52,284 nucleotides of DNA from positions 1 through 52,284 of IMG/VR virus record IMGVR_UViG_3300015050_001030; one strand, written 5' to 3'. The DNA is from a virus. Lineage: Duplodnaviria; Caudoviricetes. Shown piece by piece: positions 1-42,699 of the stretch. Every line of letters starts with the position of its first letter. The stretch's first letter is position 1. A program made the translations under genes and the position numbers. The notes beneath the pieces are model-generated. The model was not told the origin of the DNA. It searched no databases and saw only the letters and a list, made by a program, of their open reading frames with translations.

Positions 1-123
1 CTTCAATGCCTGGGGCAGTGTTCACTTCAAGGACGTAAGCCTTGTCGTAGTGCTGGTTGTATAGCACGTCGACACCACCGAAGTCAAGACCTAATACTTC
101 CACTGCCTTGACAGCTTGGTCTC
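1..123. repeat. Terminal exact direct repeat, copy 1 (circular assembly overlap)
   Basis: Bases 1-123 are identical to 52162-52284, and the repeat lies inside a continuous ORF. Confidence 0.95.
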
Positions 124-694
124 GTACTACCTGGGGTACGTTGATGTCGTGACGTGCAAACACCCAGTCGTTGTCCAAGTTACGTACGATACCATCAGTC
201 TTAGGAGCACCGTTACGGCGCTTCTTCTGCTGTTCGTCGATGACCTTACCAAAGGCCACGTGGATACGGTACTCGCCCTTGTTCTTGACGTACATGGTGT
301 ACAGCGGAGCTATCGGAAAGGGTTTGCTACCACCTTCGACGACTTCAATTCCTGTTCCACCTTGCCCGTATAGTGTATGGCGCACGACCACTTTTCCTTT
401 GTGCAAGCTAGCTTCCAAGGGATCAGTGGTAAAAGGAGGCACAGTAACACCAGCAAGACTGAGCATCTTAAGAGTGGTGAGTTTATTTCTAGCATAATTC
501 ACATTCTTTGGGTTGTTGATAATCCCGAACTCGTATTTAATTGGGACTTCGCTAGCGCCCCAATTAATTATCCTGTCGCCACGACGTGGCACGTACTTGG
601 AACGATCATGCTTAAGCAAGTAGACGTCCAAGGCATTAGCGAGAAGGTTAGCCCCTTCGCTGTGGTTGCTGTAAGCATAGATCTTAAGTGCCAT
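1..694 (-). CDS. ATP-grasp (RimK-like) ligase, N-terminal part; 246 aa across the contig join (694..1 joined to 52161..52115); not in the ORF track
   Basis: Manual translation MALKIYAYSNHSEGANLLA...IINWG...EYRIHV...LGLDFGGVDVL...AYVLEVNTAPG. EYR, D-x-G-x-D and LEVN-x-x-P are ATP-grasp motifs. RBS AAGGA upstream. Confidence 0.88.
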   Translation of the reverse strand, partial: MALKIYAYSNHSEGANLLANALDVYLLKHDRSKYVPRRGDRIINWGASEVPIKYEFGIINNPKNVNYARNKLTTLKMLSLAGVTVPPFTTDPLEASLHKGKVVVRHTLYGQGGTGIEVVEGGSKPFPIAPLYTMYVKNKGEYRIHVAFGKVIDEQQKKRRNGAPKTDGIVRNLDNDWVFARHDINVPQVVRDQAVKAVEVLGLDFGGVDVLYNQHYDKAYVLEVNTAPGIE

Positions 695-707
695 GTCGTT
701 GTCCTTT

Positions 708-1652
708 TTATCTATTAAGAAGTGGATTAATTGCTGCACGAACACGTACACGTGGGGCAGCAGGAATCTCAGCGAAGCCAAGGTCGTAAGCCTTTGTATA
801 CTTCTTACCGTTATCCACTGCATCCATACGCTTAGCCCACCCGTTCCACTCGTGGAAGTAGGCAAGGGTTAGCAACAGTGAAGCGTTCTCTTCGATCAAG
901 TCTTCGTAGCCTTTGATCTTGATAAGATCTGCCACGAACTTGGGTTCGAATAACTGGTCAAGGAAACCCTTTGCTCCAGCGCTGAAGTACGTATCAAGTA
1001 CAGCACTAGGAATACCGATAGCCTTAGCACGTTGACCCATCCTGTGTAGATTGGTTGCCCAGGTTGTAATAACCTCGGCGTCAGTCGTACCACGCATAGT
1101 CCGATACTCCAAGCTACCGAACTTACGTACAGCAGCTAGGTTCTGTCCTGAATACCGTAGATCATTGTGAAACGTAATGAATGGATGATCATCCTTGAGG
1201 TCGTCGTAGCAATAGTTCAACAAGGCTTCAGCATCCTTAAGGCGGAGACAAAACAAATTGCCTTCACGCTGTTCTTCTCCGCAGTACTTGGTCAGGAGGT
1301 TCTCAACCAACCAGTACGCTGTTATCTTTGCCCACACTTCTGCTGGTGTGTCGTCTAGGATGTTACAGTGCACGTGCAAAGAAGTCCTAGGGCTTTCCTT
1401 TAGCACTCCGTGTTCCTTAGAATTCACGTACTCAGTTAGCCGTGAAATTTTCTTAGGAAAATTATCATCCATAGGAAAAGGTTTACGGCTAACGAACTCA
1501 ATACCGTTGAACCGTAGGCTGCCTTCAGCCTTAGACTTCCAGTCTCCTCGTTCAAGTGCAGCAATAGGCACTGCGCTTTCTACCTCAAGCTCGATACCGA
1601 CGTCACCTTGGACGTCTCGAAACTGAGGCAAGTACTCTCGCATGGTCTTCAC
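708..1652 (-). CDS. Putative amidoligase (COOH-NH2 ligase, GS/GCS fold)
   Basis: Motifs GIELEVE, EGSL, IEFVS, RTSLHVHCN and LEYRTMRGT. Confidence 0.85.
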   Translation of the reverse strand: MKTMREYLPQFRDVQGDVGIELEVESAVPIAALERGDWKSKAEGSLRFNGIEFVSRKPFPMDDNFPKKISRLTEYVNSKEHGVLKESPRTSLHVHCNILDDTPAEVWAKITAYWLVENLLTKYCGEEQREGNLFCLRLKDAEALLNYCYDDLKDDHPFITFHNDLRYSGQNLAAVRKFGSLEYRTMRGTTDAEVITTWATNLHRMGQRAKAIGIPSAVLDTYFSAGAKGFLDQLFEPKFVADLIKIKGYEDLIEENASLLLTLAYFHEWNGWAKRMDAVDNGKKYTKAYDLGFAEIPAAPRVRVRAAINPLLNR

Positions 1653-2257
1653 AAGGTTACTCCGTACTTAGGTAGAACACGGTACAAGAACGAAGTCTCA
1701 GGCCCTTCGAACACGTCGAAGCGTGACTGATGCTGCGTTATCTTACCGATCAAACGGTTACGGAACAACAACCCCAAGTTGGTGGAGTTGATACGTTCCA
1801 ATGCACAGAAGCGATGGAAGGCAAGCTTATTAGACCGACCAGTAAAGATAGCTTCCTTTACTTCGTCGATAGAAGGGTACTCACCTTTGATGCACTTCTT
1901 CATTTCACTCGTTGCGAACCAAGTACCACGTGGTGGGGTGTTGGCGAAGCGAATGAGGTTGTGACAAAGCCCTTGCTTTTGACGACGATCAGGTGACCGT
2001 GCCATGAAGTAAGCTTTGTCTTCTATGTTGAGGTAGCCAAGTGGAAACGGCTTGTAACTGAAGGTGTCTTCAGTGTACTTGACAGTCTTAATGTGCTTGT
2101 TACCAGCACTCAAGTCGTGCAAGTGTACCGTGTTCTTGGTTCCTGCTACCGTGATGTAGTACGGCTCTTTGTCGTACATACAGATAGTACCGTCAAGACG
2201 CATGATAGTATCTTGATGGTCGTTGTACTCAAGTCCCATCTTACACAAACTCCTCAA
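1649..2257 (-). CDS. Hypothetical protein of the ligase cluster
   Basis: 202-aa ORF overlapping both neighbours. Confidence 0.8.
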   Translation of the reverse strand: MRSLCKMGLEYNDHQDTIMRLDGTICMYDKEPYYITVAGTKNTVHLHDLSAGNKHIKTVKYTEDTFSYKPFPLGYLNIEDKAYFMARSPDRRQKQGLCHNLIRFANTPPRGTWFATSEMKKCIKGEYPSIDEVKEAIFTGRSNKLAFHRFCALERINSTNLGLLFRNRLIGKITQHQSRFDVFEGPETSFLYRVLPKYGVTL

Positions 2258-3098
2258 TGGGGAACGCAGGTACGTCCTTAGTACTTATTTTGTACGAAGC
2301 TGCAAGATCCTGAACAGTGTTCTTGTACCGTCCATTGTTAGTTGCAGCCATGTACGGCATGTAGTTGTACATTTCCGCAGCCTTGCGGTAGTAAGCACTA
2401 CGCTTGTTACCTTGTTCAGCTAGCTTAGGAACGAACTTGCTTACTTCGTGCAACCAAGGCCACAAGACTGGGCGTCCAAGCCAAGCGTTGCTTAACGTAC
2501 GGTATTCAACACCGTACGGTTTCGGACGGAAAGCACCAGGCTTACCGTACATTCGCTGTCGTTTGGTATCCTTATCCCAGAACCAAGAGAACGGATACAA
2601 GAAATCATCCATCATCTTTGTAATCTGGCAACAATCCCAAACGTGGTCGGGATCTTCTACGTCAAAGCCCTTGCCCCAACCAATGTGGATGTGGCCAGCG
2701 CCAGTACGCATCGTAGTCTTATTGTCCGGCGGAGTGTTAACCTCGCCGTCCTTGTAAGCGTCAAAGTCGGGATCACACCCAAGCACCTTACTGTGGTCAG
2801 GCAAAGAGTCGAAGTAAGCTTTGTCGTACTCGACACTAGGACTGAAGTCGAAAGCGAATTCCTTAGGAACCATCTTTCTTACGTTGTTAAGAGTGCTTTT
2901 AATATTGGTGACAAAACCGAGCTTAGTAAGTGCGGGTCGGATATTAAACTCAACAGCCGTTCCATCAAGTTGCACAGCGCCTTTGGGCAACTGGTAAGGA
3001 GCAACTTTAGTACCAGGGACAATACCCACAGCAGCGATGTTAACACCTTTAGCGTCCTTCAGAAAGAATTCAGGGTCTGCACCCACTGTAACACGCAT
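2241..3098 (-). CDS. phiEco32-like COOH-NH2 ligase type 2
   Basis: Motifs GADPEFFL, DGTAVEFN, GCDPDFDAY, RTGAGHIHIG and KPYGVEYRTLSNAW. Confidence 0.88.
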   Translation of the reverse strand: MRVTVGADPEFFLKDAKGVNIAAVGIVPGTKVAPYQLPKGAVQLDGTAVEFNIRPALTKLGFVTNIKSTLNNVRKMVPKEFAFDFSPSVEYDKAYFDSLPDHSKVLGCDPDFDAYKDGEVNTPPDNKTTMRTGAGHIHIGWGKGFDVEDPDHVWDCCQITKMMDDFLYPFSWFWDKDTKRQRMYGKPGAFRPKPYGVEYRTLSNAWLGRPVLWPWLHEVSKFVPKLAEQGNKRSAYYRKAAEMYNYMPYMAATNNGRYKNTVQDLAASYKISTKDVPAFPIEEFV

Positions 3099-3099
3099 A

Positions 3100-4269
3100 T
3101 TACACCTTGTTATTGTTTACGAAGTACCTGTACTTTTGTTCAATCACCATGTCCTTGTGCTTGGTCATGTAGATGCCTTCGTACAGCTTCTTACCGTACC
3201 CAACAACTTCACGTACAAGATCATGTTTAGTGCAATTGTCACAGACGCAATCATCTTCTGTGTACCACCAAACCTTGTCTGTGAACTTAAGGCTGTTGGT
3301 ACAGTGAGCACACCCAGCGTCAAGGATTACCTTTACGCGATTGATGGGTATGATCTTGTAAGAGAAGCCACGGTAGGCTTCCATCTCTTTTGCCGACGCT
3401 AGGTATTCCTCTGTCCGACGCTGAGCCATCTCCGCTGCCCGTTCCTTTAGCGTCTTTCCCGTTGCTGCTGGAGCGGGTGGAGGTCCCATTACCGTGGGCT
3501 TGACGTCGGGAACGAAAGGGATACGGCTACCAGTGTACGGAGTGTGATGATACACTCGAACTGGAGGCTTGATGTCGAACTCTTCAGGTTCAAGCCCGTC
3601 AAGTTCGTATTTGTAATGGACGTACTCCTTAAGCAGGATGGGATTGCCCATCTTAGCTCCCCACTCAGCTTCTTCAGCCATGTGGTTAAGGATTGCGTCC
3701 GTACTAGCCCAGTACAAGGTGTTTTGCGAGTGATCAAGCATGATCCACAACGGACGACGGTCGTTACGAGCCATATTGAACGACCCGTCGCGACGATCAG
3801 TCCAAGTAAGGGCAAACGCACCGTGTTCAGCCTTAATAGCTGTCTGCTTGATGTCGTTCTCAGCAAGGAATTTGATCAGCTCTCGGCTATCTGTACTTTT
3901 CTTACCGTCCTTCGGATTGAAGGCATTAACAGTACCGTTATGAGCACCGACGATAGGGCCTTCCCAATACGGGTGAGCGTTCTCGTGATTAATATCCCCA
4001 ATAGTAGCACTGCGATTGTGGCCAAGTAGTAAAAACTTACTTCCAGACCCGATAGCATCTTGCGTCTCTTTCTGAGTGAAGAAGTTCCAAGGACTTACGA
4101 CACCTTTACGGATTTCGTAGTTCACTTGCTTCTTCTTCTTGAATTGTCCTATGCAAACACCAGTGCTGTGCCAACCTCGGAAGGTTGAGTACACACCGAG
4201 CTTGACAAAGTTTTCACGTTCGCTCTTACCGAGGAACGTGTTGCTTTTAGCTCCAAACAAACCACACAT
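3100..4269 (-). CDS. Class II (Ntn) glutamine amidotransferase with C-terminal Cys4 Zn-finger
   Basis: Start re-called to M-C-G-L-F-G (catalytic Cys1 after Met removal; TAATG coupling). Motifs RGWHSTG, GHNRSAT, NAHPY, HNGT, TDS. C-terminal CAHC…CDNC. Confidence 0.9.
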   Translation of the reverse strand: MCGLFGAKSNTFLGKSERENFVKLGVYSTFRGWHSTGVCIGQFKKKKQVNYEIRKGVVSPWNFFTQKETQDAIGSGSKFLLLGHNRSATIGDINHENAHPYWEGPIVGAHNGTVNAFNPKDGKKSTDSRELIKFLAENDIKQTAIKAEHGAFALTWTDRRDGSFNMARNDRRPLWIMLDHSQNTLYWASTDAILNHMAEEAEWGAKMGNPILLKEYVHYKYELDGLEPEEFDIKPPVRVYHHTPYTGSRIPFVPDVKPTVMGPPPAPAATGKTLKERAAEMAQRRTEEYLASAKEMEAYRGFSYKIIPINRVKVILDAGCAHCTNSLKFTDKVWWYTEDDCVCDNCTKHDLVREVVGYGKKLYEGIYMTKHKDMVIEQKYRYFVNNNKV

Positions 4270-4430
4270 TACGCATTCTCTCCTAGAGAAATGACATCGA
4301 TACAAACATCCTTATTGTGGTCTTCCACATAGATGCTCGCTATCTCATGCCAATAGTTACCGTCATGTGCAACAACTTCCTTATCAGGAGGAAATTCTTG
4401 CAAAACTTTAATCAACTCTGCTACTGTCAT
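4269..4430 (-). CDS. Small hypothetical protein (53 aa, MTVAELIKVLQEFPPDKEV…); not in the ORF track
   Basis: Manual translation. Its stop overlaps the start of the GATase. Confidence 0.75.
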   Translation of the reverse strand: MTVAELIKVLQEFPPDKEVVAHDGNYWHEIASIYVEDHNKDVCIDVISLGENA

Positions 4431-4431
4431 T

Positions 4432-4827
4432 TTAGATCATTCCTTTAAGGTAGGCCCAAAGCTTAAGTGCGACTTCGGGATTATCACGGATAAGGCCGAG
4501 CGCCGAGTTACAATTTCTACACAGTAGGCCTCTGACTCGACCAACGGCGTGATCGTGATCAACGACAAGTTTTCCTTCTTCACCGCACGTAAGGCATCTA
4601 TTGTCTTGGGCTCTCCTGAGGTAAACAAGTTCACCAGGGCGAAGTCCAAATTTGCGCTGAGCTTCAACGTCATACCTTCGGGCGGCAACTCCGTCCTTCT
4701 TGGTGTAGTCTCCCCACCGCTTACGATGGCAGGCTTTGCACCAGGCTTGTCTTCCATCTGCACTGTGGCTATCCTTATAAAACTCGCTGAGTTCTTTGTC
4801 TACACGACACTTTTGACAATTCTTCAA
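4432..4827 (-). CDS. Endonuclease VII-family (His-Me finger) free-standing endonuclease
   Basis: N-terminal CxxC…CxxC, plus CLTC…LVVDHDH…GRVRGLLCRNCNSALG. Confidence 0.88.
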   Translation of the reverse strand: MKNCQKCRVDKELSEFYKDSHSADGRQAWCKACHRKRWGDYTKKDGVAARRYDVEAQRKFGLRPGELVYLRRAQDNRCLTCGEEGKLVVDHDHAVGRVRGLLCRNCNSALGLIRDNPEVALKLWAYLKGMI

Positions 4828-4896
4828 TTCAGATTTCCGTTCAGAATTTTACCAAAGAAATTACGGCGATTGGGAAAAAGTCTCACGTGCACACCT

Positions 4897-5133
4897 TTAC
4901 CTATCCCAGAATCGATAATCATTGACGTCTAGTATCTTGTTAAGAGGCCATTCCTCAACACAACCACCAGGGTCACCTAATTCAGTAGGATCGTAGTTCT
5001 CTTTAATGTACTTAACCTGATCAGCAACGCGTTGCCTAACAACAGCTTCAGCAACGCTCTTACTAGTGAACAGACCTAGCTTGATAGGCCCGTCGAACAC
5101 ACTAAAGAACTGAGCTAAGAATACCCTATCCAC
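4897..5133 (-). CDS. Hypothetical protein
   Basis: GTG start with a GAGGAGG RBS, overlapping the upstream stop. Confidence 0.7.
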   Translation of the reverse strand: MDRVFLAQFFSVFDGPIKLGLFTSKSVAEAVVRQRVADQVKYIKENYDPTELGDPGGCVEEWPLNKILDVNDYRFWDR

Positions 5134-5806
5134 AGTGCACCTCCTCAGGCTTATTATTAGCCCGTTCATCTATCCTTTTCCAATCCCGTGCGAAGAGTAG
5201 CTCCAAGCGATCAAAGAAGTGGTCGCGACAAGGCTTAGGCCCAAATTCAGGATGATACTGAGCACAAAAAGCATTGTCGTGATCGTACATAAGCTCTTCG
5301 ATGTCGTTAGCTTCTTCGTCGGCAGTCTCACGCTTCCACAGTTCGTACTGATTTTCCTTACTGTCGGATTCATTAGCCACCCCAAGAATCTGAGCGTCAG
5401 CAGCAGGTATCATCATCTGATGATGGACACTACTGACTTCGATTATCTGGCCACTGATGTTGTCAAGCATCTCGTGGTAGTTACCGTGACCAGTAACGTG
5501 CTGCCACATGCGACCGCCACACAGCACGTTCATTAGCTGCGCACCCCTACAGATACCGACTTTCGGTACGCTGCGAGGGAGCTCTTTATAAGCCCTAACT
5601 TCAGATAGATCTCGCTTAAAGTTAGTAAAAACTCCCGCTCCTGCAAGTACCTTCTCTCCATATAGGTAAGGGCTGATGTCTTCTCCACCCGTAAAGCAGG
5701 CAAGGTGCACGTCCGGATTGTATTCACGTACTGTCTCCCATCCTGCTGTTTTAAACATGTTGACCACGGTGGAGTTAGGTTCAACAATGTACACCTTACG
5801 CTTCAC
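5126..5806 (-). CDS. Class I glutamine amidotransferase / peptidase C26 (gamma-glutamyl hydrolase-like)
   Basis: Motifs TGGEDISP-x-x-Y, GICRGAQLMNV (nucleophile Cys), SVHHQ and QYHPE. GTG start after AAGGAG. Confidence 0.88.
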   Translation of the reverse strand: MKRKVYIVEPNSTVVNMFKTAGWETVREYNPDVHLACFTGGEDISPYLYGEKVLAGAGVFTNFKRDLSEVRAYKELPRSVPKVGICRGAQLMNVLCGGRMWQHVTGHGNYHEMLDNISGQIIEVSSVHHQMMIPAADAQILGVANESDSKENQYELWKRETADEEANDIEELMYDHDNAFCAQYHPEFGPKPCRDHFFDRLELLFARDWKRIDERANNKPEEVHCG

Positions 5807-6683
5807 AGAAAATCTCCTTACTGTATTTGTTAATGTTGGCGATAAGCTCAGGCCGTAGCGGAAGCTTGTCGTCAGCACGTACCGATATGTTGTACAGCTT
5901 TTCAAACGATCCACCGTACGCCTTACGGTCACCGAGATATTTGTATATCCCAGGCACGTCGCTTATAAGGTTTGACGGTGTCACGTAGTTCTGGGTAGGT
6001 GCCTTCCTGGTACCTTTGTCCCAGATAGAATTACACGGAAGGTATTGATGATCCTTAGTGTAATCCTTTGATTGTCCTATGTCAGCAGCACCGTTCTTGA
6101 ACTTGGCCCAAGAAATACCAAAGTTCAACGGGTAATGTGCTGTTGACCCTGCCTTACGTGGAGGTATTGTCGGCTGCAACAAGGCGAAGTTGCTAAGGTA
6201 CATAGCCTGACAAGGAGTGAAACCTTCTTTAAGGTACTCGTTGAACGACACAACGTGAGTTGCGTGTTCGTTAGGCTGTCGAGTAGCAATAAAGAAGTTG
6301 ACTAAGAGCTGAGCAGGAAGGTGAGCGTTGACACGAACGCCACACATATCACCGTTATCACGACGTATAAGAACAGCATCTTTAGTTACTTCTCTCCAAG
6401 GACTATCCTTACCACAGATGAATGACCAATACGCCTCAGCGAGTGGCTTCATCAACTCAGTACTGAACAAAGACGTAGTGACTGTCTCAAGTTTGTCCCA
6501 CTTGATTGACCCTTCGTGAGGGTGAGGAGCATTCATGAAACCGTGACACCCGTTGTTCAAGTGCTTGGCAATGGTGCCGTCACTGTGATCAAACGTTACG
6601 TCGCAACAACCGTAAGATGACATCGCCATAGTACGGGACTTAAAGAACTTATCGCTTAGTTCACACGCAATACTGTGACTCAT
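5796..6683 (-). CDS. Hypothetical protein (295 aa)
   Basis: Long ORF coupled to the downstream GATase; no motif recognised. Confidence 0.8.
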   Translation of the reverse strand: MSHSIACELSDKFFKSRTMAMSSYGCCDVTFDHSDGTIAKHLNNGCHGFMNAPHPHEGSIKWDKLETVTTSLFSTELMKPLAEAYWSFICGKDSPWREVTKDAVLIRRDNGDMCGVRVNAHLPAQLLVNFFIATRQPNEHATHVVSFNEYLKEGFTPCQAMYLSNFALLQPTIPPRKAGSTAHYPLNFGISWAKFKNGAADIGQSKDYTKDHQYLPCNSIWDKGTRKAPTQNYVTPSNLISDVPGIYKYLGDRKAYGGSFEKLYNISVRADDKLPLRPELIANINKYSKEIFCEA

Positions 6684-6688
6684 GTTTG

Positions 6689-6976
6689 TTATGCTACCTT
6701 ACGTCCATTGGGGTTTGACGGGACTACGGTATAAGCCTGAATGGATATACCTTCGGGGGTGTTGGTAAAGCTCCAGAAATATCGGTTAGCCTCAAGCTTA
6801 AGGTACTTGGGGATTAACTCGTAACGCCGATTATGCCACCATTCACCAAAGCCTGGAGTGTTAAAGTCCCAGATCCAAGCACCGAATTTGAACAACGTCA
6901 TTGTCTTATATCTCCATGTATGTATGGCAAAGGCAAACCTCCTTAGGATTGGAGCCCTAAGGAGGTACAAGTTCAC
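6689..6976 (-). CDS. Hypothetical protein, aromatic-rich
   Basis: GTGA overlap with the upstream gene. Confidence 0.65.
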   Translation of the reverse strand: MNLYLLRAPILRRFAFAIHTWRYKTMTLFKFGAWIWDFNTPGFGEWWHNRRYELIPKYLKLEANRYFWSFTNTPEGISIQAYTVVPSNPNGRKVA

Positions 6977-7260
6977 CGCCAGAAGAAAAGCCAGGACCAG
7001 AAGCCCTTGCTCTTTACTTTCTTTGGAACCAACTCAATCTTATCGTCTGCAAATACTGGAAACTCAATAACCTCGCCTCGATTAGATCCCTCAAGGCTTT
7101 CAGCTTTCAGCACTACAATGTGACTGGCCTTGCCAATGATACCAGGACGTTTGTGGTCGTAGGTATCAGTGATCTTAGCCTTACCGTCTTTAAGGAAGAC
7201 CTTATCGCCGGTGTTAAGTTGGCGGGCAAACTTAGTCTTTGCCGTTGCCATTATACGCAT
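6973..7260 (-). CDS. KOW/SH3-like protein resembling EF-P/eIF5A domain I, with amphipathic C-terminal tail
   Basis: ARQLNTGDKVFLKDG…HKRPGIIGKA…GEVIEFPVFADDKIE compared with the EF-P consensus ANDLRKGMTIELDG…HVKPGKGQA…GRVIEKTFRSGDKVE. RBS GAAAGG. The ORF is solid; the fold is inferred. Confidence 0.55.
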   Translation of the reverse strand: MRIMATAKTKFARQLNTGDKVFLKDGKAKITDTYDHKRPGIIGKASHIVVLKAESLEGSNRGEVIEFPVFADDKIELVPKKVKSKGFWSWLFFWR

Positions 7261-7261
7261 T

Positions 7262-7553
7262 ACCTTTCAAGTGAATTCGTATGAACTTGATCGTTTTGCG
7301 GTAGGTATCGAACCTACACAGCGGAACTTTTCACGGTTCCAAAGTATCCCGTGTTCATACGTCAGTACTGTGACGACCAAAAAGGTGAGGCTCACCGCCT
7401 CGGTTTTCAGACTCCGCCACGGAGATGTGTGCGACCATCCAGGATGGGCAGGGATCGAACCTGCATGTTCATCGCTTGTCACCAGTACAGCTTACCATGG
7501 GTCCCCTTGCTGTGGGCAGCTAAGAAGATGCTGGGTGTCTGCATCCGAAGTGA
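7262..7553 (-). ncRNA. Structured RNA with two tRNA-like T-arms
   Basis: GCAGG-TTCGATC-CCTGC (7448-7464) and GTAGG-TTCGATA-CCTAC (7301-7317). Each lies inside a closed multibranch domain (stems 7365-7374/7478-7488 and 7278-7286/7353-7361). Confidence 0.6.
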
Positions 7554-7787
7554 TCATTTACGACGCCGCTTACCTGCGGCTACACGTCTCATTTTAGTAT
7601 GCATCCGAGGTTTCTCAACCTCTTCAACGTCCGCATTGCGTACTAGTTCCGATAGATCTAATATCTTGCGGGCATAGCACAAACCTTGATAGTAGCGTCT
7701 CAACCATACAGCAAGAAACGCATTCAGCACTATAGACAGTACCAATGAAGTACAGACAATGCTGGTGACTACTGCCATTTGTTCCAT
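7554..7787 (-). CDS. Single-pass membrane protein with basic tail
   Basis: N-terminal hydrophobic helix and C-terminal KRRRK; RBS GAGG. Confidence 0.7.
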   Translation of the reverse strand: MEQMAVVTSIVCTSLVLSIVLNAFLAVWLRRYYQGLCYARKILDLSELVRNADVEEVEKPRMHTKMRRVAAGKRRRK

Positions 7788-11590: not shown

Positions 11591-11812
11591 CTATAGGTCT
11601 GCATCCTTAATCGTTCCCGGTACAATCCAAAACGATTTGACTTTGTGCGGACATTCATATACCGGATTGATTGTCCTACACATGAGCAAGATGTGCTCGT
11701 CAAAGCGTGTGTTATAATACACAATAGCCATTTGATTTGTCCTTATGTTGCTCACATAACACATACCTGCCTTGTTGCATCTCTGCCACACTGTTACCTT
11801 AGTACCACACAA
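11591..11812 (-). CDS. Hypothetical protein
   Basis: 73-aa co-directional ORF; start uncertain. Confidence 0.45.
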   Translation of the reverse strand: MCGTKVTVWQRCNKAGMCYVSNIRTNQMAIVYYNTRFDEHILLMCRTINPVYECPHKVKSFWIVPGTIKDADL

Positions 11813-11823
11813 TACTTAGGCAT

Positions 11824-11855
11824 AAAAAAAGCCCCAGGCATTTCTGCCCAGGGCT
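11824..11855 (-). terminator. Rho-independent terminator
   Basis: GCCCTGGGCA-GAAA-TGCCTGGGGC followed by T7. Confidence 0.85.
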
Positions 11856-11943
11856 CTATCGTAGGTTGTACTGGTCTAGCTCTACCGCTTGCCACCTTAA
11901 CCGATTTCCGGCGACAACCTACAATTAGTCAGTGTACCGAATA

Positions 11944-12594
11944 TCAGCCTTCGAACGGAATTGCTTCCGCTGGCTGTTCACGGCGTCCGCCACGTCCGCC
12001 ACCATTGCCGCCACGCTCAGAGTTTGCAGAGGTCTTGCCCTGCAAACGCTTGTCCAAATCCTTAAGGCTTTCAAGACCTGCAAGGTCTGTCTTTTCGTGG
12101 CCGCGCTTATCGTCATCTGCCGCAACTTTTTCAGCCCGCTTGAGCAGGTTATGAATGGCCTGCTTAAGGTCAAAGCCTTCAAACTCACGGTTCGCATCGA
12201 CAGGCTTGAAGGCTGGCGTAACCTCTGCCAAATCCTTCATGTGTGCCTCTTTGTCGCCCTTGTAGGACAACTCGATTTCAGGAGACACTGCCTTGTGCTC
12301 AAACTTGCGGATCGTTTCTTCCTTACCGGTCGAAACGTTCAGTTCTTTGACTGAGACCCAAGAAAATGGGCCGTGTGCCTCAAACCAACGCACAAGTTGA
12401 GGGCGATCAAAGACGTCAGACGGCAAGCCGTTGACAAACTTGGTCGCAATGCGAACATCGCCCGTGTCAATTGCGTTTCCGACAATTGCAGGGCAAAGGT
12501 CGACGATAATATCACGCATCTGGTTGGCGCCCTGAATGACGCTTTCAACCTTTGCGTTTAGTGCTTTCGTAGCAGTTTCAAAACGCTTAGCCAT
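11944..12594 (-). CDS. Early hypothetical protein (216 aa), probably highly expressed
   Basis: GGAG RBS, own terminator and a long structured leader. The GDV…ATKFVNGLP…LVRWF motif recalls conserved early podophage proteins. Confidence 0.85.
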   Translation of the reverse strand: MAKRFETATKALNAKVESVIQGANQMRDIIVDLCPAIVGNAIDTGDVRIATKFVNGLPSDVFDRPQLVRWFEAHGPFSWVSVKELNVSTGKEETIRKFEHKAVSPEIELSYKGDKEAHMKDLAEVTPAFKPVDANREFEGFDLKQAIHNLLKRAEKVAADDDKRGHEKTDLAGLESLKDLDKRLQGKTSANSERGGNGGGRGGRREQPAEAIPFEG

Positions 12595-12599
12595 TTGTT

Positions 12600-13115
12600 A
12601 TGCTCCAAATGCTATAACTGCCTACACTATTGTAGACAGTATGCTGCATTCGGTTGCTTCGTTGTGCTGCCCTTGTGAGGCTCGCATCCGCTGTTCAGCC
12701 AGAGCCGCGAGGCAACTGCTTACTGGGAAATGCGCTGTGTGTTGTCACAACAAAAATTCCGCGTGGCTCGACCGGCAGCAACTACTGCACACGCCCCTAG
12801 CCAGCTCAGTGAAATCAAGGGATAGCCGTTCCCAGCCGTCCCTTGTCTCTGTACTGTTTTTGCGCAGCTATCCCTAGGCCGTGTTCAGGTGCTAACCCGA
12901 CGGTCTGATTTTCATGCGCTTGTGTTGGGCAATAGCTGCGCCTCTCTCACACACCATTATTGCAGGTGTGCGTAGACACATAACCAGATAGGGATAGGGC
13001 GCAGCAATCTGCGCACGTAGTGTCCCCTATATCACTGGCACCAAGCCAACTATGGTTAGGTAAATCTAACGCTCGAAGCGCAAGGCCCCTAATGGCCCGG
13101 ATAGCAGAGGCATTG
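12600..13115 (-). ncRNA. ~500-nt structured, multistable leader or ncRNA
   Basis: No credible ORF. Many helices. The segment TAGGGATAGCTGCGCA (12861-12876) has three alternative perfect partners. Confidence 0.55.
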
Positions 13116-13118
13116 ACC

Positions 13119-13373
13119 CTATTTCAAGCCGAAACGGGCATACCTCTTGACGGGCCGATAAGAGCCCGTGTTCTGCAAGTCAGCGAATTCCGGCCTAGGC
13201 TTTACTACAAGCCAGTTCCAGCGATCGCCAGCCGCGCAGTCATTCGACGCATCACGCAGTGGCCTGATTTGCCTATTAGCGCCGTCATCCCCAAGCCGGG
13301 TTGGCTTGCGTTCTGGCGTATAGGTCGGGAAATCCCCTGCCGCGTTACGTGTCTTGCGTTTGTCGTTAGCCAT
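13119..13373 (-). CDS. Hypothetical protein (84 aa)
   Basis: ATG (MANDKRK) after a GAAAGG RBS. Confidence 0.55.
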   Translation of the reverse strand: MANDKRKTRNAAGDFPTYTPERKPTRLGDDGANRQIRPLRDASNDCAAGDRWNWLVVKPRPEFADLQNTGSYRPVKRYARFGLK

Positions 13374-13598
13374 AAGTAAACCTTTCGGTGAACATCTGCA
13401 AAGTGACAAACTGTCACAGGAGGATCAAGTCATCTGACTGTCTTCGCTCGCTGCGACTGATTGAGAGTAGACCATATCCGGTTAAGCAATGATACCAACT
13501 TAAGGTTGAAAAGGGTGCGACATTGTGACGCATGTGTAAGGCACTGATTTTACTGGAAGAAATTACGCATTACCGGCGGCTAATCCAAAACAGCACAC

Positions 13599-13859
13599 CT
13601 ATGACACGCGAGAGTAACGCACGCTTAAGTAGTATTTCAAGGCAAAGTCTGTATGCCTCTCTAATTCCATCTCACGCTGTATCTGTTCAACAGGTACAAC
13701 TTCACCTTGCCGTACCATGCTAGTGTTCAGTGTTCTGACTTTCTTAAGCTCAGTATTTAAGATTGTGTAACGTTGCCATGCGCACGCCTTGGTTGACATG
13801 CGATGCGTTGCAGACACATGATGACTGCGACCACGCTTTCGATTGAGAGGTGTGCGCAT
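13599..13859 (-). CDS. Basic hypothetical protein
   Basis: TAATG coupling with the upstream 43-aa ORF. Confidence 0.6.
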   Translation of the reverse strand: MRTPLNRKRGRSHHVSATHRMSTKACAWQRYTILNTELKKVRTLNTSMVRQGEVVPVEQIQREMELERHTDFALKYYLSVRYSRVS

Positions 13860-14061: not shown

Positions 14062-14364
14062 TTAACGGAACATTAGTGGAGCTAAGACAACGATCAGTAC
14101 AATGGCAATCAGCATAACCCATGTTGCCAGCCTTGCTCTGCCTTTGTCAGTATACGTCAGCATGTAGTCAACATACTCTTTGCACTCACGTTCAGCTTGC
14201 TGTTTAGTTCTAGCTGTGCCCGTGATCACAAAGTCGTCAACGTATCCGACCCAGTACGGTTCCTGCCACTTAACGTTGATAAAGCGTTGCTTGTACCATC
14301 CGTAATAGTAGCCTGCCCCGTCCATCTCTTTGCTCAGTATACTCATGTTCTTGATACGCTCCAT
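14062..14364 (-). CDS. Hypothetical protein with C-terminal TM helix
   Basis: TM segment WVMLIAIVLIVVLAPL. Confidence 0.65.
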   Translation of the reverse strand: MERIKNMSILSKEMDGAGYYYGWYKQRFINVKWQEPYWVGYVDDFVITGTARTKQQAERECKEYVDYMLTYTDKGRARLATWVMLIAIVLIVVLAPLMFR

Positions 14365-14499
14365 TTGACTTCACCATATTTGTTAAGGTGTGGCGCCAAA
14401 GTCACAGCTGCACACATATGCAACTATGCCTACTGTTGATTGTAGGATATGAGACACACAACTTAAGAGGGAATTAGCTGTGTGTCCCACGTGCTACAG

Positions 14500-14595
14500 T
14501 CAATGTAACCAGATTGCTATCCTCAGTGCCCAGACAATCACGTATAAGACTATCAGTGCAATGAACAAGCGAGTAACGATACGATCTGTACGCAT
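14500..14595 (-). CDS. 31-aa membrane peptide (MRTDRIVTRLFIALIVLYVIVWALRIAIWLH); not in the ORF track
   Basis: AAGGA RBS; single hydrophobic helix. Confidence 0.5.
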   Translation of the reverse strand: MRTDRIVTRLFIALIVLYVIVWALRIAIWLH

Positions 14596-15096: not shown

Positions 15097-15145
15097 AATC
15101 ACCACCTCACATTTACTAAGGGAAATTCGAAGGGATAGGAAAGCG

Positions 15146-15315
15146 CCTTAAGGTTCCCTGTAGAGGAACCAGCGGTAAGGGATACCTAAGGTTAACCTAA
15201 GCTCTTCCTTTACACTACCTATACATTAACCTTAAATCTCCCTTTACCTTCCTGGAAAGAACCTTAGGTTAACCTAAGGTTAACCTAAGGTATCCCTTAA
15301 GGTAACCTTAAGGTA
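15146..15315. repeat. Short CCT(T)AAGG repeat array, copy B, with ~26-bp inverted arms
   Basis: Tandem 11-bp units ccttaggttaa, cctaaggttaa, cctaaggtatc, ccttaaggtaa, ccttaaggtac. Arms ~15176-15201 and ~15274-15299 are near-perfect inverted repeats. Confidence 0.8.
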
Positions 15316-15424
15316 CTACTACTGGTATAAAGGGGGTAAATGATCTCAAATGTATAAATTTATAAAAATTATAAGAAATTAACAGATTTTTGAATAAAAA
15401 TCATCTTAATCTGTGTCTACCCCC

Positions 15425-15453
15425 TTGACAAATGCTCAATTGTTTGATATCTT
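15425..15453 (+). promoter_or_regulatory. Sigma70-type promoter of the late arm
   Basis: TTGACA-N17-TATCTT with an AT-rich upstream region, ~80 bp before the terminase small subunit. Confidence 0.7.
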
Positions 15454-16343: not shown

Positions 16344-17897
16344 ATGGTCCAAGATAAGAAGGATCTCATTCGGCGACAAGCTGAATCCGACCTAGAGTTC
16401 TTCATCAAGCTTATAACTCCCAACAGGCTGTTAGGCCAGGTACACAAGGATCTCATTCGGTGGTGGACAAGGCCAGAAGCAAAAAGTCACCAGCTCGTTC
16501 TGCTTCCTCGCGACCATCAGAAGAGCGCTATGATTGCGTATCGAGTCGCATGGGAGATTACTCGGAATCCCGCTATTCGCGTGCTCTACATCAGCAGTAC
16601 AGCGAACTTGGCGGAGAAGCAGTTGAAGTTCATCAAAGATCTTCTATCCTCCGACGTATACAGATTCTACTGGCCGGAGATGGTGAATCTTGAAGAGTCG
16701 AAACGAGAGAAGTGGACCGGTGCTGAAATCTCTGTCGACCACCCTAAGAGAAAAGCTGAGTTCATCCGTGACCCCACGGTATTCACTGCAGGACTTACTA
16801 CTGGTATTGTTGGTATGCACTGCGACATCGCTGTTATGGATGACGTGGTTGTCGGGGAGAACGCATACGATGAACCAGGCAGAGATAAGGTTCGTACCCA
16901 AGCAAGCTACCTTGCAAGTATTGCCGGAACAGATTCGTCTGTGTGGGCCGTCGGAACCAGGTACCACCCAAAGGACTTGTATCACGATTTTGCGAACCAA
17001 ATCGTAGAGATCTGGGGAGATGAAGGCGAAATCGAACAGTCTTACAACTTGTGGGAAACCTTCGAAAGGCAAGTTGAAGATCGTGGCGACGGTAGTGGAA
17101 ACTTTCTATGGCCCCGTCAGAAGACCCGGGATGGAAAGTCCTCGTTTGGTTTTGACAAGAAAGAGCTAGCTAAGAAACGTGCACAGTATCATGACAAGAC
17201 CAAGTTTCGTGCTCAGTACTACAACGACCCCAACGATCTATCAACCGCTACAATCACGCCCGATATGTTCCAGTACTATGATAGGGCACATCTTCACAGA
17301 GAAGGTGGAAAGTGGTACGTTAAAGATAAGCGGCTCAATGTTTTTGCTGCTGTGGACTTCGCCTACAGTGACAAGACTGCGGCCGACTTTACAGCCATCG
17401 TGGTCATTGGAGTCGACAGTAAAAACAACATCTACATTCTCGACATTGATCGGTTCAAGACTAACAAGATGTCTGAATACTTTAATCGGATACTTCGGCT
17501 TCACGTTAAGTGGGACTTCAGAAAGATACGAGCAGAGTGTACAGCAGCTCAGCAGGTCATTGTAAAAGATCTCAAGGAATCGTACATACGACCTCACGGA
17601 CTAGCACTCGCAGTTGAAGAGTTCCGTCCTACTTTCAAAGAAGGTTCCAAAGAGGAACGTATCGAAGCTAATCTTCAGCCAAGGTACAGCAATCTTCAAG
17701 TATGGCACTTTGCAGGAGGCAACTGTAGCTTACTTGAAGAAGAACTGATAATGCAGAAGCCAGCTCACGACGACATGAAGGACTGCTTAGCAGCCTGTGT
17801 CGAGATCGCAGTTCCCCCAGCTTTCCAAAGTGGATCGATGGTAAAGGAACGAGCAGACAACAATTTCTTTCATTCACGTTTTGGAGGTGTAGGTTGA
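16344..17897 (+). CDS. terL: Terminase large subunit
   Basis: Walker A-like LPRDHQKS, Walker B IAVMDD, coupling motif GTRY, nuclease AAVDFA and HDD. Confidence 0.93.
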   Translation: MVQDKKDLIRRQAESDLEFFIKLITPNRLLGQVHKDLIRWWTRPEAKSHQLVLLPRDHQKSAMIAYRVAWEITRNPAIRVLYISSTANLAEKQLKFIKDLLSSDVYRFYWPEMVNLEESKREKWTGAEISVDHPKRKAEFIRDPTVFTAGLTTGIVGMHCDIAVMDDVVVGENAYDEPGRDKVRTQASYLASIAGTDSSVWAVGTRYHPKDLYHDFANQIVEIWGDEGEIEQSYNLWETFERQVEDRGDGSGNFLWPRQKTRDGKSSFGFDKKELAKKRAQYHDKTKFRAQYYNDPNDLSTATITPDMFQYYDRAHLHREGGKWYVKDKRLNVFAAVDFAYSDKTAADFTAIVVIGVDSKNNIYILDIDRFKTNKMSEYFNRILRLHVKWDFRKIRAECTAAQQVIVKDLKESYIRPHGLALAVEEFRPTFKEGSKEERIEANLQPRYSNLQVWHFAGGNCSLLEEELIMQKPAHDDMKDCLAACVEIAVPPAFQSGSMVKERADNNFFHSRFGGVG

Positions 17898-42321: not shown

Positions 42322-42699
42322 TTATGCAGCCTTAGCTGCCTCGTATTCTTTACAAAGATCTACGAACTTACTTGCTATCTTAGGTCTATCGTCGACCATA
42401 GAGCCGTTGGCCATAGCGTCCAACAGTATGGAACAACATGCTTTGACGTGACCAAGGTGATGTGCTTGGGAGTCAGGAGCACGTTCTTCTTTACTGTCAT
42501 ACCATGCAAACAAATGTCGGAGGATGGCATCATAGTATACCGATGCTGCGACATCTGTCTCACGCCAGTTCATCAACGTGTACTTACCCTTACCATCCAA
42601 CATAGCTGCGCCTTCTTCAATAAGACCAACAGTAGGGATAGCGTGGAAGGTAGGTTTAAAACGAGCAGCCCCGCTCTTAGGGTTATTGTCCGGGTACAA
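42322..42699 (-). CDS. dATP/dGTP diphosphohydrolase-like (DUF5664) protein
   Basis: Pattern NPK…G-x-x-KY-x-x-x-NWR…YYDA-x-x-RHL-x-AW…DS-x-x-HHL-x-H-x-x-A. Confidence 0.8.
   Translation of the reverse strand: MYPDNNPKSGAARFKPTFHAIPTVGLIEEGAAMLDGKGKYTLMNWRETDVAASVYYDAILRHLFAWYDSKEERAPDSQAHHLGHVKACCSILLDAMANGSMVDDRPKIASKFVDLCKEYEAAKAA

Follow-up and report, generated by a model that had tools for sequence, protein, structure and literature searches.

A 16-nucleotide word reused by the predicted hairpins of a putative early-gene leader in an uncultured T7/SIO1-like podovirus

Background

In phage T7, RNase III cleaves sites that precede the early genes. The host promoters A1-A3 of T7, at 498, 626 and 750, are followed by gene 0.3 at 925, and promoter A1 is separated from gene 0.3 by 427 nucleotides (nt); the RefSeq feature table of T7 lists no RNase III site. 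Here we describe a stretch of 524 nt that stands immediately upstream of an early gene on the minus strand of a complete podovirus genome, IMG/VR record IMGVR_UViG_3300015050_001030, which was analysed over its whole length of 52,284 base pairs (bp) and is called the window below. Our preferred reading, to which we give about half of our belief, is that these 524 nt are the untranslated, T7-style leader of a minus-strand early-gene cassette; if so, the window adds a further early leader of the T7 type, with a long untranslated RNA and a control hairpin, from an uncultured phage lineage. The two features at the centre of this work are as follows.

12595-13118, minus strand: non-coding leader or intercistronic gap of 524 nt, with stops in all six frames, negative codon log-odds, a minimum free energy (MFE) of -201.4 kcal/mol and no Rfam match
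11944-12594, minus strand: early gene for a 216-amino-acid (aa) protein of family phrog_1448 (E 1.2e-15), function unassigned, codon log-odds +0.50

T7 and the window have in common a two-tier hairpin with an internal loop that ends a few tens of nt before a start codon, and in many Autographiviridae phrog_1448 occupies the position of the first early gene of T7. Unlike T7, the window has no promoter of comparable quality in its gap and no T7-type RNA polymerase among its annotated open reading frames (ORFs), not all of which were scanned. In addition, the lower stem of its hairpin overlaps the Shine-Dalgarno (SD) sequence, and T7 has nothing like the 16-nt word that is reused in the distal part of the gap.

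A second comparison is provided by the Melnykvirinae (Spp16, phi80-18, GAP227, Atoyac14, Dev-CD-23823 and Proteus PM1), in which a hairpin stands 13-25 nt before the ATG of phrog_1448, a position it shares with the hairpin of the window. The two are also alike in having a two-tier stem, a tetraloop-sized loop and a U.G pair followed by C-G in the upper stem, whereas a single A/G mismatch in the Melnykvirinae hairpin stands in place of the 5x4 internal loop of the window. Among five of these hairpins, 10 of the 19 pairs show compensatory change and one U.G is invariant. The apex resembles the hairpin before T7 gene 0.3, and the hairpin seems to be absent from Rfam, the loci themselves lying outside the Rfam scan.

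Trp-type attenuators resemble the window in that alternative helices, overlapping in a chain, precede a hairpin whose tail is rich in U; the spacings in the known examples are much smaller than those seen here. Premature termination in phage 5' untranslated regions (UTRs) has also been described: one ONT-cappable-seq study reported 29 candidate RNAs derived in this way from the 5' UTRs of six virulent Pseudomonas phages (PMC10914365). Those phages share with the window a structured 5' UTR and a terminator-like hairpin upstream of a phage gene; they differ in that the RNAs were mapped experimentally and in that the hosts and phages are unrelated to ours.

Results and discussion

The gap is non-coding

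Stops interrupt all six frames of 12595-13118. A codon model derived from 16 long genes gives log-odds per codon of -0.57, -0.26 and -0.43 for the three minus-strand frames, while the 216-aa gene reaches +0.50; a hidden gene is thus ruled out. The initial annotation had thought of a riboswitch-like element or a large non-coding RNA and proposed an Rfam search, which gave no such identification: over the whole window no family of Rfam 15 reaches its gathering threshold, and at E≤10 the single match in 12300-13700 is aceE-II on the opposite strand, with 10.5 bits against a gathering score of 100. No tRNA or transfer-messenger RNA was found in the whole window. The presumed transcribed strand of the 524 nt folds better than its shuffled versions (z-score -3.47, none of 100 shuffles as stable). 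Segments of 240 nt within the leader have z-scores of -1.5 to -3.1, inside the coding background (mean -1.39, standard deviation 1.48 at 1-7680; -1.9 to -3.0 in the coding sequence of the 216-aa protein), so thermodynamic stability alone is not distinctive.

A predicted two-tier hairpin and strong constraint next to the gene

The part of the gap nearest to the gene contains two hairpins that bear on the preferred reading.

12602-12657, minus strand: two-tier hairpin directly 5' of the start codon (MFE -25.6, 44% of the local ensemble; z -4.77, 0 of 200 shuffles)
12660-12690, minus strand: hairpin whose tip is changed but still paired in a relative (the relative's differences fall at 12659-12681)

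The two-tier hairpin has an upper stem of 10 bp, including one U.G that the opposite strand would render as a C/A mismatch, a 5x4 internal loop, and a lower stem of 8 bp plus 2 bp that ends 7 nt before the ATG. The 3' strand of the lower stem takes in the first two G of the SD sequence GGAG (12606-12603). In its layout it matches the T7-type RNase III site before an early gene, in which two tiers of about 18-20 bp, interrupted by an internal loop, stand immediately upstream of the coding region.

The only relative found over the leader is a 514-nt contig from a wastewater DNA run, which covers 12233-12745. In its coding part, 26 differences from the window are listed at 12433-12577, and by hand count 21 of these fall at the third positions of 54 codons (39%). 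In the leader part, the 64 nt nearest to the gene (12595-12658) are free of differences, nine substitutions and three indels are clustered at 12659-12681, and the 128 leader bases outside this cluster hold one listed difference and at most four possible ones, three being unlisted. The cluster replaces the tip of the 12690-12660 hairpin, from 4 bp with a 5-nt loop in the window to 5 bp with a 4-nt loop of different letters in the relative, while the lower three pairs and the topology are unchanged (MFE -47.7 versus -48.2). The proximal 150 nt are therefore better conserved than the adjoining coding sequence and have undergone one structure-preserving replacement; as judged from this alignment, they are under strong constraint at the nucleotide level.

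We suggest that these 150 nt control the translation and/or processing of the early mRNA. By analogy, the hairpin at the ribosome-binding site (RBS), 12657-12602, would act like the RNase III site that stands ahead of the first early gene in T7, with the RBS becoming accessible once the hairpin is cut or opened.

Hairpins of the Melnykvirinae type were located in six of the loci compared.

L084, 2394-2443: Melnykvirinae-type hairpin
L087, 1791-1836: Melnykvirinae-type hairpin
L088, 1081-1127: Melnykvirinae-type hairpin
L089, 1077-1124: Melnykvirinae-type hairpin
L095, 552-603: Melnykvirinae-type hairpin
L100, 432-479: Melnykvirinae-type hairpin

A covariance model built from five of them, searched against the window and 17 loci, recovered the five training sequences and that of PM1 (54 bits), all on the plus strand, with weaker reverse-strand echoes. 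With MAFFT, the hairpin of the window does not align with the Melnykvirinae hairpins.

Other searches for relatives gave negative results. None covering the hub part of the leader (12746-13118) was found in the searches of phages, viral contigs, metagenome contigs and genome contigs. A blastn search of 11800-13600 against phages had no match, the hub 16-mer occurred at two loci in viral contigs with no further similarity and these are chance matches, and the 22-nt hairpin was absent from viral contigs, as was a 24-nt piece of the RBS hairpin from metagenome contigs. Viral contigs also lacked the 216-aa protein and its close relative P0002, an alignment of these two proteins found no match in metagenome or genome contigs, and 80 terminase-anchored loci of related phages had neither the gene nor the gap. 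The contigs of the wastewater run leave 12746-13800 uncovered.

One word, three hairpins

Further from the gene, the gap contains the complementary segments that give it its unusual character.

12861-12876, minus strand: segment C, the 16-nt hub word TAGGGATAGCTGCGCA (= UAGGGAUAGCUGCGCA), from sequence reading, repeat search and shuffle tests
12989-13015, minus strand: segment A, made of TGCGCAG, the 11-nt insert ATTGCTGCGCC and CTATCCCTA, from sequence reading and repeat search
12999-13014, minus strand: A hairpin, GCGCAG, loop AUUG, CUGCGC, then CUAUCCCUA (ensemble P 0.88)
12932-12941, minus strand: segment B, GCGCAGCTAT, from sequence reading
12818-12826, minus strand: segment D, GCTATCCCT, from sequence reading
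12862-12942, minus strand: B:C stem-loop domain (base-pair probabilities 0.41-0.59; constrained ensemble P 0.47)
12811-12849, minus strand: local 16-bp hairpin with a GGAA loop, which holds D (12827-12818) and is terminator-like with an interrupted U tract UUGAUUUC (P 0.92-0.93)

The initial annotation had described a 16-nt segment that can pair with three partners, A, B and D, and sequence reading together with the repeat search bears out every one of these pairings. All six proposed helices are perfectly Watson-Crick, and this includes the 8 bp between GCUGCGCC and GGCGCAGC, which cross the pairing of A with C as the pseudoknot that had been proposed. An inverted-repeat search recovers the arms (10 nt at 100%, 9 nt at 100%, 9 nt at 100% and 11 nt at 91%). 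B (12942-12932) and the 3' part of C (12871-12862) form 10 bp, followed after a 2-nt bulge by CCC:GGG, and all 24 nt of A outside its AUU are pairable, 16 with C and 8 with B. These complementarities are real and unusual.

The copies of the word are different, overlapping pieces of it: B corresponds to positions 2-11, D to positions 7-15, and in A the word is split by 11 nt, and the copies have just CTAT in common. The palindrome of the A hairpin occurs once in the genome, and C has no second full-length copy there at up to three mismatches. The 5' arm of the 12849-12811 hairpin is in turn a 9/11 direct copy of the 5' part of C. One 16-nt word thus builds three hairpins, the A hairpin from its GCGCAG half, the D hairpin from its CUAUCCCU half and the B:C domain from its middle, and it is because the three hairpins reuse one word that the cross-pairings of the hub arise.

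Some of these features would suit an element that works as DNA, in which the reused word would be a set of protein-binding sites (an operator or promoter region, such as the tandem early promoters of T7-like phages) or a site of replication or recombination. The hub helices contain no G.U pairs and are therefore equally good on both strands, and the A palindrome lies about 50-65 bp upstream of a candidate transcription start (see below). Moreover, promoters occur in the equivalent region of other phages with phrog_1448: those of the TTGACA/TATAAT type are clear by eye in the gaps of Spp16 and Vibrio phage 526E57-1, and promoters are annotated there in GAP227, VPp1, Acibel007 and phiKMV. Repeated protein sites are nevertheless not expected to be different, overlapping pieces with only CTAT shared and no full second copy, the gap is GC-rich rather than AT-rich (53% GC versus 47.7% for the genome), and a Pfam search found no DNA-binding domain in five neighbouring small ORFs. 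With no promoter above threshold on the minus strand at 12595-13600 either, we regard a DNA-level element as improbable and place it last among the four rivals considered here, after a true switch, a neutral by-product and a separate small RNA, in that order.

Two wider roles for the word were tried and rejected. As a genome-wide motif or promoter it fails because the excess of GCTATCCCT-like 9-mers consists mostly of in-frame Ala-Ile-Pro codons with no shared flanks. As a seed for action in trans on the phage mRNAs, C at first sight has many partial matches elsewhere in the genome (8, against 1.9 in codon shuffles); the real 16-mers of the genome, however, average 3.5 such matches and 7.3% of them reach 8, which puts C at the 93rd percentile. 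The match pair at 42602-42642 has a local alignment score of 25, against a mean of 21.6 and a maximum of 31 after shuffling, and pairs of hub-region matches within 60 nt arise in 455 of 500 codon shuffles.

A 30-codon ORF lies within this region on the minus strand (12886-12978; ATG at 12978, stop at 12888-12886), where it spans B and ends 10 nt before C. It has no SD sequence and is probably due to chance, although its placement is the one that a leader-peptide attenuator calls for.

The folding ensemble is dominated by local hairpins

Helix weights were computed with constrained partition functions in the nearest-neighbour, nested ensemble. The initial annotation had presented the three partners of C as mutually exclusive alternatives, and as states of comparable weight they do not hold up:

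A hairpin: ensemble weight 0.88
B:C: ensemble weight 0.47
A3:C: ensemble weight 0.03
A insert with B: ensemble weight 1e-4
Full A:C: ensemble weight 4e-5
C:D: ensemble weight 6.5e-8

Folded alone, the A hairpin has an energy of -9.9 kcal/mol (z -3.15), and the B:C domain a z of -1.70 in a 96-nt fold, with 10 of 200 shuffles folding as well. The third partner is lost to a hairpin that the initial annotation had overlooked, since D is the 3' arm of the local 12849-12811 hairpin (z -3.90 in a 76-nt fold). That hairpin keeps a P of 0.92-0.93 whether or not B is present, and forcing C:D yields a P of only 7e-7 to 3e-9. Its tail UUGAUUUC has 5 U in 8, broken by GA, and a consensus terminator scan does not call it. 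No measurable competition was seen in the ensemble between the hub helices and either the 12849-12811 or the 12657-12602 hairpin.

Under the preferred reading, the hairpins of the leader RNA would follow one another and be local for the most part: the A hairpin at 13014-12999, B:C at 12942-12862, the terminator-like hairpin at 12849-12811, three smaller ones at 12760-12660 and the 56-nt two-tier hairpin at 12657-12602, which would pair half of the SD sequence. The cross-pairings can be drawn on paper and would have little or no weight in the ensemble. Most simply, the distal hub would be a set of attenuation or read-through hairpins with its point of action at 12849-12811, which would fit the premature-termination RNAs reported in the 5' UTRs of other virulent phages (PMC10914365). 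Transcription of the minus strand, RNase III-type processing, translational control and this role of the distal hub are inferred.

An attenuator of the leader-peptide kind was considered and does not fit. Unlike trp-type attenuators, the window has a 30-codon ORF that lacks an SD sequence, and C:D, which would have to serve as antiterminator, is less stable than the terminator-like hairpin by about 9-12 kcal/mol, with a P of 7e-7 even when B is removed.

The same segment of the gap could also give rise to a small RNA of its own, about 140 nt long, or to a 5'-UTR-derived RNA made by premature termination, starting near 12948. Its parts would be the B:C stem-loop, a single-stranded linker rich in A (12860-12850) and, as terminator, the hairpin at 12849-12811 together with the U-rich tail, and A would be upstream DNA. 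This order of stem-loop, A-rich linker and terminal hairpin speaks for it, as do the 5'-UTR-derived RNAs reported for the six virulent Pseudomonas phages (PMC10914365), and a suitable start is offered by one further feature.

12956-12986, minus strand: weak candidate promoter inside the gap, with an extended -10 TGcAATAAT (12964-12956) and a poor -35 (score 9 in a relaxed scan); a predicted site

This promoter would start an RNA just 5' of B. Its -35 is poor, however, and a stricter scan does not call it, the U tract of the supposed terminator is interrupted and is passed over by the terminator scan, and the action of C in trans on phage mRNAs failed as described above. We therefore consider a separate small RNA unlikely, and rank it third among the rivals.

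Rarity of the hub and the remaining readings

The hub, defined as a stretch of 16 nt for which three perfect partners of 9 nt or more exist, appears in one of 2000 dinucleotide shuffles of the 524 nt. The gap contains three such inverted pairs, compared with a shuffle mean of 0.53, and three or more are reached in 1.7% of shuffles. When the whole genome was shuffled in the same way and partners were sought within 200 nt, none of 300 shuffles produced a hub, while the real genome holds two, the leader hub and an array of 11-nt repeats at 15.1-15.4 kb. The hub came to notice in a very large scan, in which a pattern this rare may still turn up by chance; these figures make chance less likely and do not remove it.

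The second hub deserves a description of its own. The array at 15140-15320 is made of 11-nt units with the nearly palindromic consensus AACCTTAAGGT in both orientations, and 24 inverted pairs fall within 1.3 kb. The array separates the early block on the minus strand from the divergent plus-strand block and adjoins the best promoter-like sites, with an AT-rich segment (15340-15440) beside it. Possible roles are the real end of the genome, a site of packaging or replication, or an array for a regulator.

A number of results weigh against the leader reading. The conservation of the proximal 150 nt rests on one low-depth contig (9.1) from a single run, and an element that acts as DNA, for instance a promoter, would explain it equally well. 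The one run found to share words with the phage is a DNA run, with a small share of them, and no RNA run is listed. No good promoter of the sigma-70 type was identified, and none passes the scan threshold on the minus strand at 12595-13600. The covariance model of the five Melnykvirinae hairpins misses the window at E≤10, and the likeness to these sites is accordingly one of architecture, not of demonstrated homology. The hub is statistically rare, and three hairpins built from one word leave the reuse of that word unaccounted for. Finally, a fold that combines A:C with the pseudoknot between the A insert and B differs from the nested ensemble by -3.6 to +1.9 kcal/mol, the value varying with the penalty; this is a rough estimate by hand, not a pseudoknot-aware computation, and a second global fold may therefore exist.

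This last point leads to the reading of the initial annotation, a true multistable switch or timer that works during transcription. A, B, C and D would exchange partners, in a nested state (A hairpin with B:C) or a pseudoknotted one (A:C with the A insert paired to B), and this would govern either read-through at the 12849-12811 hairpin or the accessibility of the early gene's RBS. The reading is partly supported, the region being non-coding, folding better than shuffles and having a constrained proximal part; the comparable states, an Rfam family and outlying z-scores have not been found. The rarity of the hub in both shuffle tests, the ability of all 24 nt of A outside AUU to pair and the rough pseudoknot energy all favour a switch, and in MFE folds of the growing transcript B:C comes and goes, with A3:C briefly present at length 250. 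The terminator-like and RBS-pairing hairpins downstream would be possible output platforms. Set against this, C:D is never populated, with the local partner of D winning even without B, the nested alternatives have low weight, the energy that would rescue the pseudoknot is the hand estimate just given, and of ten other phrog_1448 leaders none has a three-partner hub, Acibel007 reaching two. We judge a switch unlikely, and yet the foremost of the rivals.

Bolder still would be the view that the distal leader represents a novel type of riboregulator in phages, made by reuse of a single 16-nt word, in which a nested fold and a pseudoknotted 24-bp fold interconvert in the course of transcription and serve as a timer or sensor through read-through of 12849-12811. 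We regard this as a long shot. If the hub does work with two states, it would amount to an RNA timer of new design, compact and self-contained, and read-through would lead into the first early gene that is most widely conserved among T7-like podoviruses.

Perhaps the hub has no function at all and is a neutral by-product of local duplication, or of template switching between neighbouring quasi-palindromes, in non-coding DNA under relaxed constraint. Such an origin agrees with the selection effect that a large scan brings and with the unexceptional thermodynamic signal. Of 11 leaders of the family, only that of this phage has the hub, and the 9/11 direct copy of C in the 5' arm of the D hairpin is what local duplication would be expected to leave. 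It is harder to reconcile with the absence of any hub from the 300 shuffled genomes, with the compactness of phage genomes and with the strong constraint on the adjacent 150 nt. We place it second among the rivals, as an unlikely explanation.

The 216-aa gene and its family

The gene that follows the gap is strongly initiated and has its own terminator, as the initial annotation had noted, with GGAG 8 nt before the ATG.

11828-11857, minus strand: intrinsic terminator after the 216-aa gene, with a 13-pair stem (7 G-C) followed by a T run

A stretch of 35 nt of this hairpin (11821-11855) matches a separate 233-nt contig of the wastewater run with three differences and unlike flanks, and the terminator hairpin may be common to another phage.

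Residues 8-182 of the protein match positions 21-178 of the 190 in the phrog_1448 profile, and tblastn gives 28-31% identity to homologues in Spp16, PM1 and a Vibrio phage. A large protein library holds 50 distant representatives, and the only close relative found, P0002, is 72-74% identical and lies on a 2.8-kb contig. The structure model has a predicted local distance difference test (pLDDT) value of 86.7 and finds no PDB fold match at E≤0.001; the protein has no Pfam match and no named family at a usable score in Atlas. Its C-terminal tail (11944-12020) is rich in Gly and Arg-Gly-Gly, ends in PAEAIPFEG, and is shared with P0002 and not with the other 39 aligned family members. We take the tail to be reminiscent of RGG RNA-binding boxes and of the acidic IPF tip of bacterial SSB; by this analogy the protein may be a binder of nucleic acid, perhaps of its own leader.

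A tblastn search with the Spp16 homologue reaches 315 phage records, mostly Autographiviridae, and in most of the records written from the left end the homologue lies 0.5-3.5 kb from that end. Ten of the 17 homologue loci inspected have an upstream annotated gap or 5' UTR of about 490-650 nt, and in most of the loci a strong hairpin ends 10-30 nt before the RBS.

Gaps of this size (nt): Spp16 488, phi80-18 574, GAP227 547, Atoyac14 620, Kpn1-P3 591
Further gaps of this size (nt): Dev-CD 530, Vibrio 526E57-1 549, Acibel007 about 490 from the annotated -10, Mora-5 at least 652, RSJ5 at least 604
Seven loci without such a gap (nt): PSTNGR1 321, VPp1 with a small ORF between, Lidtsur 136, AHPMCC11 83, Misse 22, PM1 10, phiKMV 10

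phrog_1448 is among the most widespread early genes of the Autographiviridae and has no known function or fold, and the recurrence of the gap of about 500 nt, together with the frequent hairpin before the RBS, suggests that control of its expression commonly acts at the level of RNA.

Genome and locus

The genome has direct terminal repeats, and its terminase is 57-62% identical to those of podoviruses of Celeribacter, Lentibacter and Roseobacter; the phage is a T7/SIO1-like podovirus. Long ORFs occupy the plus strand at 15.5-42.3 kb, the first being the terminase gene at 16344, and by position this may be the structural block, the scan having covered the terminase ORF. Small early ORFs run down the minus strand from about 15.4 kb, followed at 0.7-6.7 kb by an amidoligase/glutamine-amidotransferase cluster. 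The replication genes (primase-helicase, DNA polymerase, Cas4-like exonuclease, ribonucleotide reductase and MazG) span the ends of the record. Promoter-like sites on the minus strand lie at 15431-15368, and the hub leader is 2.4-2.8 kb downstream of them.

The leader belongs to a GC-rich island (11.85-13.5 kb, 50-57% GC versus 42-47% in the flanks), composed at 11850-13500 of a doubtful 84-aa ORF, the leader, the 216-aa gene and the terminator, and this cassette may have been acquired as one unit.

13119-13373, minus strand: doubtful 84-aa ORF that forms the 5' boundary of the gap (codon log-odds +0.14)

The log-odds of this ORF fall below the 5th percentile (0.258) of 85-codon chunks from confident genes, and a 96-aa form of it has no Pfam or PHROG match.

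Further up the minus strand, an imperfect 28-bp hairpin at 14436-14503 (MFE -34.8 kcal/mol, z -5.53, 0 of 200 shuffles) stands about 70 nt upstream of a 100-aa early ORF at 14364, and is a second large hairpin before a gene in the same early transcript region. At the other end of the early strand, the minus-strand cluster at 708-6683 encodes an amidoligase, a COOH-NH2 ligase, a glutamine amidotransferase and a GlmS-like aminotransferase (PHROG E 1e-35 to 1e-62) and may be a module concerned with a peptide, a metabolite or DNA modification; an endonuclease VII gene lies within it at 4432-4827.

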